Shown here piece after piece: positions 24,577 to 27,431 of a stretch of DNA of 64,000 bases. Made by a program: the position numbers and the translations under genes. The stretch spans positions 66,920-130,919 of the forward strand of contig CALOBA010000038.1 in assembly GCA_942491465.1 (NCBI GenBank), written 5' to 3'. Each line of letters begins with the position of its first letter. Position 1 is the stretch's first letter. Origin of the DNA: an uncultured Gammaproteobacteria bacterium (GTDB taxonomy: Bacteria; Pseudomonadota; Gammaproteobacteria; Chromatiales; Chromatiaceae). The notes beneath the pieces are model-generated. The model was not told the DNA's origin, made no database searches, and worked only from the letters and a program-made list of their open reading frames with translations.

Positions 24577-27431
24577 CCGGGCGGCACAGGCGCGCCGCGC
24601 CCACGGTGTTGCCGTCCTGCGGCACCTGATTTTCCTGGTCGGCATCCTGCTCGGGGCCGCGGCCTGGGCGACGCCGGCCACCACATCGGCCGCCGCGTCG
24701 CCGCAAATCATCGTCACCGACGAGGCGGCGCTGCCACTTCAGATCGAGCACATGGCGCTGCTGCGCGACCCCACGGGGGACCTCGACCTCGTGGACGTAC
24801 GCACACCGAGGATCGCGCGGGACTTCACGCCGGCAGCGCCCGGCATCCCCAATCTCGGCATCGGCAGCGACGCCGTCTGGGCGCGCTTCGCGGTGCACAA
24901 CGCCAGCGGCGGGCCGCTGTCGCTGGTGCTTGCATTGACCGATGCGCGCACCGGGCAGGTCGCCTATTGGGCGCTGGACGATGCCGGTCAGGTCATTGCC
25001 CAGCGCCGCGACGGGCGCTTTGCCGATGCGGCGGAGCGCGACCGCTCACACCGTTGGTTCCTGTTCGACCTGCCGTTGGCCGCGGAGGCAAGCGCGACGC
25101 TGTACCTGCGCGTCGCCGGCGACACCGGGCGCCGGCTGGACCTGCGGCTCACCGACCGGCTGCGTCTCGCCGAGGCGGACCGGCCTGCCTACGCCTGGCT
25201 CGCGCTGTTCTTCGGTGCCTTGCTGTTCATGCTCGCCTACAACCTGCTGTTGCTGGTGCAGCTGCGCGACCCCGCCTACCTGTGGCTTTGCTGCCTCATT
25301 GCCGGCGTGATCATCTGGGTCGCGGATCGGGAAGGTCTGTTGACGACCCTCGCCTGGCAGATCTGGCCGGCCCCGCTGTCCGGCATTGCGACCGGTGCCG
25401 CACTGGCATTCATCGGCATCTACCTATTCCCGGTGGCCTACCTGCGGCTGCGGCAACAGGCGCCGCGCTGGGTTTGGGTGCACTACGCGCTGGTGCTGCT
25501 GGCCGCGAGCGTGCCGCTGCTGTCGGCTTGGTGGCCGCTGTTGGGCTATACGCTGAATTCCACGCTCGGCGCGGGCACCGCCCCGGTGATGATCGCCAGC
25601 GGCGTGCTGGTGCTGCGACGGCAACCGCGGGCGGCGGCCTGGTACTTGGCGAGCTGGCTGCCGATGCTGCTCGCCATGCTGCTGCTGATGCCGATGAACT
25701 TCGGCCTGCTGCCCGCGTTGCCGTGGCTTTGGTTGCTGCCCTACGGCGGACTGCTGTTCATGCTGCTGCTGCTCTCGATTGGCCAGGCCGACCGCGTCAA
25801 CGAGCTGCGCCGGCAGGCCGAGCGTGCACGGGCGGCGCTGGCGCGCAACGAGGCACGGCTCAGCGAGCAGGTGGACGCGCGCACCCGCGAGCTGGCCGTG
25901 CAGCGCGACCGCGCCGAGGCCGCCAATCGCAGCAAGACCCAGTTCCTCGCCAGCATGAGCCACGACCTGCGCACGCCGTTGAACGCGGTGCTGGGCGGCG
26001 CGGACCTGTTGCGGCGCTCGCCGCGGCTCGGCGCCGACGAGCAGGGCCAGTGCGGGCTCATCCTGCGCGGCGGCCGGCACCTGCTGCGGCTGATCGAAGA
26101 CCTGCTGGACGTCGCCCGCATCGAGCACGAGCGATTGCGCCCCGTGATCGCGGACCTGGCGCTGCGCCCGATGCTGGACGACCTCGCCGCCGTGACCCGC
26201 ACCCAGGCCGAGGCCAAGGGCCTGGCCTTCGACACGCAGTTCGCAACCGACCTGCCCGAGCACATCCGCACCGATGCCCGCCGCCTGCGCCAGGTGCTGC
26301 AGAACCTGCTGGACAACGCCGTCAAGTACACCGACGCCGGCCGCCTGGGCCTCGGCGCGGGGCTCGATCCCGCGCCATCGGCGTCCGCCGACGGACAACG
26401 ACAACGACAACGACAACGACAACGACAACAACGACAACGATAACGACAACGTCGGCGACGGCCCAGTCCTGCTGTTCACCGTCACCGACACCGGCTGCGG
26501 CATCGCCGAGGCGGATCGGGAGCGCCTGTTCGCCCCCTTCGAGCAATACCACCACGCCCAATCCGGCAGCGGGCTCGGCCTCGCCATCTGCCGCGAACTG
26601 GCGACCGTGCTCGGCGGCGAGCTGCTGCTGCACAGCGCGCCCGGACAGGGCAGCCGGTTCAGCCTCCGGCTGCCGGTGCAGCGGCTGACGACGGCGCCCG
26701 ACATGGACACCTCAACGGCGGAGCCCTCGCCCATCCTCGGCTACGCCGGCCCGCGCCGACGCATCCTGGTGATCGACGACAACGCGGACAATCGGCGATT
26801 GATGATCGCGCTGCTGCAACAGCTGGGCTTTGCCGTCGACACCGCCGACGGCGCCCAGGCGGCCTTGGCCCGGGCCCGCGAGCGGGCACCGGACCTGGTG
26901 ATCGCAGACCTGCGCATGCCCGAGGTCTGCGGCTACGCCGCCACCTGGCAGCTGCGCACCGCGCTCGGGCGCTGGGACCTGCCCGCCATCGCCGCCTCCG
27001 CCTCGCCGCTGCCGGCACCGGAAGACGCCGCCGCGCTCGGCTTCGATGCCTTCCTGCTCAAGCCCATCACGCTGGATGCGCTGCGCGAAACACTCGGCGA
27101 GTGCCTGGGGCTGCACTGGCAGCGGGGCGATGCGGCCTCGCTGCAATCCGCACCGTCCCCCGGCAGCCGGCCACCAGCCCAACCGCCGACGCAGCCATTG
27201 GCAGAACCGCCGGAGCCGCCGCCGCGCATGGAACTGGCAGCCGCCCTGGAGCTTGCCGAACTCAACGACTGGGACAGTCTGCGGGACTGGTGCAGGTCGC
27301 TGGACGACGCCTTCCCGGAGTGCAGAGGATTCGCGCGGCGCGTGCACGCGCTGCTCGACCAGATCGATGCCGGCACGCAGACCGACGCCCCCTTGGAGGC
27401 CCTGCGGAGACTGCTGGCGGACCGCGGCTAG
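24566..27431 (+). pseudogene. 7TMR-DISM-type hybrid sensor histidine kinase with reading frame broken at an internal (GACAAC)n tract
   Basis: Frame of 24566 carries the signal, 7TMR-DISM extracellular and 7-TM regions, H-box FLASMSHDLRTPLN and N-box LQNLLDNAVKYTD, and stops at 26441-26443. Frame of 26274 carries (DN)n, G1 VTDTGCGI, G2 GSGLGLAICRE and the receiver ILVIDDNADN...VIADLRMPE...FLLKP. A 1-nt shift near 26385-26400 is needed. Could also be a sequencing error. Confidence 0.6.
26394..26450 (+). repeat. intragenic (GACAAC)n tract, about 9.5 units
   Basis: GACAACGACAAC...GACAACAACGACAACGATAACGACAAC inside the HATPase_c region of the kinase, between the N-box and G1-box. Confidence 0.9.

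Follow-up and report, generated by a model that had tools for sequence, protein, structure and literature searches.

A 7TMR-DISM-type hybrid sensor histidine kinase locus at 24566–27431 of the window (the whole 64,000-nt stretch of DNA analysed here, part of the 137-kb contig C38) is spread over two ORFs, 24566..26443 and 26274..27431, which lie in different frames and exchange coding signal at the edge of a (GACAAC)n microsatellite. The arrangement raises the question of whether these ORFs are one gene or two and, if one, whether the break is an error of the assembly, a true mutation or a site of recoding. Coordinates of the features discussed are collected in the table.

One kinase gene in two reading frames

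Pfam places the sensor modules 7TMR-DISMED2 and 7TMR-DISM_7TM (7.1e-22 and 4.2e-23) and HisKA with its H box (4.1e-17) ahead of a cut HATPase_c domain, with profile positions 2–26 on the first ORF and 38–110 on the second, and a C-terminal receiver after it on the second ORF (Response_reg, 4.1e-18). The motifs SHDLRTPLN, NLLDNAVKYT, DTGCGI and GSGLGL are seen in the ORF translations, and the layout is that of an extracellular DISMED2 module, a 7-TM region, HisKA, HATPase_c and a receiver. The first ORF ends ...SASADGQRQRQRQRQRQQRQR (longer form ...NLLDNAVKYTDAGRLGLGAGLDPAPSASADGQRQRQRQRQRQQRQR) and the second, in the other frame, reads ...PPTDNDNDNDNDNDNNDNDNDNVGDGPVLLFTVTDTGCGI (longer form ...TDNDNDNDNDNDNNDNDNDNVGDGPVLLFTVTDTGCGI...). 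A response-regulator gene with receiver and AraC-type HTH, likely the operon partner of the kinase, runs 11 nt into the start of the kinase gene.

Searching 5.8 billion proteins, we found orthologues in Chromatiaceae (Thiohalocapsa, Halochromatium and Lamprobacter, 61–73% identity), and all 15 of the full-length orthologues read are single ORFs of 873–973 aa carrying all five domains, a DNA check of one of them confirming its single ORF. These annotated 7TMR-DISM hybrid kinases (PF07696 + PF07695 + HisKA + HATPase_c + Response_reg) share the five-domain architecture of the window kinase, and the N, G1, G2 and H boxes are conserved between them; the window's lineage differs by a (DN)n insert placed in the hairpin that links the N box to the G1 box, and it is there that the window ORF is broken in this assembly. 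P0123 is an intact 940-aa metagenomic orthologue, near-identical and with an N-terminus matching the window copy, and belongs to the four-member 90% cluster of the window's truncated protein; no member of that cluster is a read-through version of the window kinase. Metagenome and genome scans for the DNA of P0123 returned only 66%-identical relatives, and the protein collection held no independent assembly of the window strain.

The genome itself (a 5.87-Mb assembly of 85 contigs, 94% complete, with 8% marker redundancy) contains an intact paralogue on contig C2 (C2:102257–105109), with an open frame of 962 aa. Homology with C2 spans 24548–27453 of the window (94.3% identity), ending at the gene borders, from which we take the two copies to be paralogues; the possibility that C38 and C2 are duplicate contigs representing strain variants was rejected on the same ground. 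Identity is uneven along the gene, reaching 99–100% at the DNA level over 25758–27257, the catalytic and receiver half, and ranging over 64–98% in the sensor half, where the copies differ for instance across 24770–24860 and C2 carries 12 nt extra; at the protein level, the 5′ part of the window kinase is 90% identical to the paralogue. P0123 differs from the window and C2 copies within their conserved half. The sequences suggest that the catalytic halves of the two paralogues were recently homogenized, by gene conversion within the genome.

The two ORFs are one kinase gene. The reading in which they are normally separate genes, one for a sensor/DHp protein and one for an ATPase–receiver protein, has the ORF map as its one argument. 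Against it, a single HATPase_c domain is cut between profile positions 26 and 38, the full-length orthologues read and the paralogue are all fused into one ORF, and the second ORF has no coding signal upstream of the tract, the change of frame being detected by our codon model. That reading is refuted, and we give it practically no weight. An earlier, sequence-only reading of this DNA had already seen the tract, the ATP-binding domain divided across two frames and a single gene behind both ORFs, and Tandem Repeats Finder, the Pfam boundaries and the single-ORF orthologues now confirm these in turn; it had also named orthologues encoded as two separate genes as a possible counter-case, and none of the 15 is encoded in that way.

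Table. Positions of the kinase features, the frame lesion, broken housekeeping genes and hexamer arrays (window coordinates unless a contig is given).
Feature	Position	Strand	Detail
Response-regulator gene, receiver + AraC-type HTH	23611..24576	+	Pfam Response_reg 3.1e-25, HTH_18 3.4e-20
Kinase 5′ part, frame 2	24566..26394	+	7TMR-DISMED2, 7TMR-DISM_7TM, HisKA, HATPase_c N box, up to ...SASAD-G(G)
2-nt deficit, reading frame changes	26393..26395	+	window GG-ACAAC, paralogue GGCGACAAC; DNA alignments
Imperfect (GACAAC) microsatellite	26394..26451	+	(GACAAC)6-AAC-GACAAC-GATAAC-GACAAC-G; codes (DN)6-N-(DN)3 in the downstream frame
TAA closing the upstream frame	26441..26443	+	made by the GAT variant unit read as CGA-TAA
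Kinase 3′ part, frame 0	26394..27431	+	(DN) loop, G1 box (VTDTGCGI), G2 box, receiver, C-terminal helical tail; stop 27429–27431
Broken housekeeping gene, glyA	C39:59958–59963		frame break
Broken housekeeping gene, cydA	C8:42004–42009		frame break
Broken housekeeping gene, glgP	C13:46602		frame break
Broken housekeeping gene, pstC	C73:17525–17541		frame break
Other coding GACAAC-type array	C59:11568–11627	minus	read as 21 consecutive valines
Dispersed low-GC hairpin element	14084–14267; 20080–20359; 45386–45591; 53142–53370; C2:105190–105300		(TCGTTG)n + (CGACAA)n arms of variable length

The frame lesion and the coding GACAAC tract

Aligning the window with its intact paralogue locates the lesion at the 5′ edge of the tract, where the paralogue has GGCGACAAC and the window GGACAAC, two nucleotides short (in the alignment, GCCGACGG[CG]ACAAC). 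This is the only frame-changing difference in the 2.9-kb window/C2 alignment; the window tract is a net 25 bases longer than that of C2, made up of 27 nt more repeat and 2 nt less at the 5′ edge. The glycine of ADG-DN is conserved in both intact copies, C2 reading ...SASADG-DNDNDNDNDN-VGDGPVLLFTVTDTGCGI... and P0123 reading SADG-DNDNDN-VGDG. A single uninterrupted frame is present in the paralogue, P0123 and the orthologues read, and absent from the window copy as assembled. Beyond the break, about 1 kb is open and 99–100% identical to the paralogue, with no decay; judged as a candidate pseudogene, the window kinase shows an indel relative to its intact homologues, and neither relaxed constraint nor further downstream lesions. 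The sequence-only reading had joined the frames at this edge, had recognized that hexamer slippage alone cannot shift the frame and had followed the upstream frame to its TAA, all of which agrees with a separate 2-nt event here. Its suggestion of a 1-nt indel, for example an extra G, does not survive alignment with the paralogue and P0123, on which the extra-G lesion was rejected.

The tract lies within GCCGACG-(GACAAC)6-AAC-GACAAC-GATAAC-GACAAC-GTCGGC (26387–26457) and is scored by Tandem Repeats Finder as 10.2 copies of period 6. The hexamer is not a chance occurrence, since the window contains 76 matches to an 18-nt GACAAC pattern where shuffles give an expectation of 0. Codon log-odds for this genome are +0.92 for GAC and +0.77 for AAC against −2.0 for CGA and −1.8 for ACA, and among the three frames of the hexamer only GAC-AAC (Asp-Asn) takes codons that the genome favours. 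Repeat number varies across the three copies, with 3 units in P0123, 5 in the C2 paralogue and about 9.5 in the window, coding (DN)3, (DN)5 and (DN)6-N-(DN)3, respectively. In an alignment running from the N box to the G1 box these three alone carry a DN tract, other genera being 10–20 residues shorter there, and the repeat is, on this comparison, specific to the lineage of the window kinase.

An AlphaFold2 model of the C2 paralogue (mean pLDDT 79.8) runs in order through the N-box helix (575–592), a strand (597–604), a low-confidence stretch (610–626, pLDDT < 50) that covers the DN tract, and a strand leading into G1 (630–637). Given this order, the insert, which falls between the N and G1 boxes, is predicted to form the disordered tip of a β-hairpin at a distance from the conserved boxes. 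The (DN)n loop is tolerated in the ATP-binding domain and its length is variable; the earlier placing of the tract in a variable loop between these boxes fits both the intact copies and the modelled hairpin, and the comparison of orthologues that it had proposed finds the insert in three copies only. Apart from this lineage-specific microsatellite, translated within a permissive loop, the locus encodes an ordinary 7TMR-DISM hybrid kinase.

Across the genome we counted 154 GACAAC arrays, nearly all non-coding, and besides the kinase tract only one (on contig C59) lies in a long ORF with high third-position GC. Many of the arrays form the arms of a small, dispersed hairpin element. The kinase tract shares the GACAAC/GTTGTC hexamer with this hexamer-armed hairpin MITE family, but lacks MITE flanks, represents one arm only and is read as protein. 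One of the elements lies about 60 nt downstream of the stop codon of the intact paralogue. A separate 440-nt (GTCGTT) array of about 75 units occupies 19516–19955 of the window, upstream of a minus-strand gene that probably encodes a glycosyltransferase; ORF 18332..19786 enters this array only as QR/PR repeats, so it is probably 5′ leader or intergenic sequence.

Intragenic microsatellites that vary in copy number from copy to copy and from strain to strain are also a feature of SSR contingency loci, the phase-variable genes of Neisseria, Haemophilus and Campylobacter. The window kinase differs from these in that slippage by its 6-nt unit keeps the frame, the break being a distinct change of 2 nt at the edge of the tract, and we found no evidence at the window kinase for ON/OFF switching of that kind. 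Identity with a usual SSR phase-variable contingency locus was rejected for an intragenic tract whose unit is divisible by three. A literature search for GACAAC returned nothing relevant; the pink-berry Thiohalocapsa is a different, closed 7.95-Mb genome, whose description makes no mention of frameshifts or GACAAC-like repeats (PMC9296519).

Frame breaks across the assembly

Many contig ends in this genome overlap other contigs at 96–99% identity. Between the members of thirteen overlapping contig pairs there are 166 indels of one nt, 69 of two nt and 31 of three nt, most of them not in homopolymers, and the 8% ‘contamination’ is probably this redundancy of contig ends. A genome-wide scan with the codon model, looking for same-strand frame changes unlike ordinary gene junctions, recovers the kinase site and flags 150 sites in all, a count that is approximate since at least one (the LptE/HolA junction) is a false positive by eye. 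The density of flagged breaks at contig ends and in duplicated regions is 4.3 times that in unique interiors, and most of the 41 flagged sites with a second copy show a 1–2-nt indel near the predicted point. Joining the two frames restores one continuous Pfam match over the break in SHMT, cytochrome bd subunit I, glycogen phosphorylase and PstC; for glyA and cydA, the genome has no copies but broken ones. Because core genes are broken, including the sole glyA and cydA copies, frame breaks in this assembly are often artefacts.

Frameshift artefacts are known from long-read or poorly polished metagenome assemblies, and this genome shares their traits: many 1–2-nt indels at contig ends and in duplicated regions, and broken core genes, with a second representation of the locus intact. 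What sets the kinase site apart from such artefacts is its place in the interior of a contig that is clean elsewhere: on C38 the scan flags just one further site, close to the start of the contig, and the window's remaining frame changes do not look like breaks. Near flagged breaks, repeats of 4–7 nt show an enrichment of about 4-fold, a figure that comes from four sites only.

A second hybrid histidine kinase, beside the paralogue at C2:99108–101791, is also interrupted, its HisKA domain being cut with profile positions 1–29 and 33–66 in different frames. A stretch of about 12 codons, which includes a (GGCGAC)3 tract (GHGDGDGDD / AQATATATAT), contains the break, and this fits consensus trouble associated with such tracts.

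Consensus error, gene loss or recoding

We consider a consensus error the probable origin of the lesion. The (GACAAC)n repeat, translated as (Asp-Asn)n, occupies the tip of the β-hairpin that leads from the N-box helix to the G1-box strand; it is tolerated there, its length shifting by slippage to give the 3, 5 and about 9.5 units of the three copies. On the reading that we propose, the ORF break, two nucleotides missing where the tract begins, is most likely a consensus error of a noisy assembly, and the real gene would be intact, encoding a full-length kinase of about 955 aa. An error is likely at this point because the microsatellite lies within about 1.5 kb that is 99–100% identical to a paralogue with a different tract length, and placing reads and polishing the consensus are least dependable where near-identity is combined with a microsatellite. 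Speaking against an error, C38 is otherwise clean and its local consensus quality seems good; the edges of microsatellites are also true mutational hot spots, and an intact paralogue makes a loss tolerable.

These same points lend some plausibility to a real frameshift, although we hold it to be the less likely case: a recent 2-nt deletion at the edge of the microsatellite, fixed or present as a population variant, would have inactivated this copy of the kinase, leaving the C2 paralogue as a backup and the upstream regulator either orphaned or served by that paralogue. Such a deletion would fall at a repeat boundary, as expected of a natural hot spot, in a surrounding contig with no other frame break, and in a gene whose intact paralogue is 94% identical overall and 99–100% in the catalytic half. 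Yet the complete lack of downstream decay would require the event to be very recent, 2-nt indels are common between duplicate representations of one locus, and an assembly that breaks single-copy core genes such as glyA does not allow its breaks to be taken at face value. A broader version, in which hexamer tracts in the surface loops of sensor kinases are hypermutable, tuning loop length, with edge slippage occasionally switching paralogues off in part of the population, strikes us as improbable; the window kinase and the interrupted kinase at C2:99108–101791 would then be snapshots of the switching-off process.

If the tract were a site of programmed recoding, through +1 ribosomal frameshifting or slippage during transcription, a truncated sensor would be made alongside the full-length kinase; the upstream frame does meet repeated rare CGA codons (log-odds −2.0) before its TAA, which could in principle slow ribosomes. 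The paralogue and P0123 nevertheless code this region in one frame, and no relative needs a shift. Inspection of the sequence by eye showed neither a slippery motif nor a Shine–Dalgarno-like stimulator, and no stop codon in frame where the shift would occur; the changes from CAA to AAC and from CGA to GAC allow no tRNA re-pairing after a +1 shift; Rfam gave no matches over the window. Recoding, which the sequence-only reading had also judged less likely, is very improbable and essentially excluded. Of the two explanations that the sequence-only reading had left unranked, we place sequencing or assembly error first and true inactivation second, on the ground that the assembly breaks even its only glyA copy and contains some 150 frame breaks.

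Frame breaks in this genome should accordingly not be read as biology without the reads, the broken sole copy of glyA being a case in point. A real frameshift in the kinase would mean that one of two partly homogenized paralogous sensors had been lost very recently. In either case, the kinase offers a clean example of a genome-wide GACAAC microsatellite captured in coding sequence and kept only in the codon-suited Asp-Asn frame, at a hairpin of the Bergerat ATP-binding fold that the model indicates to be structurally permissive, where its length varies between paralogues and strains.
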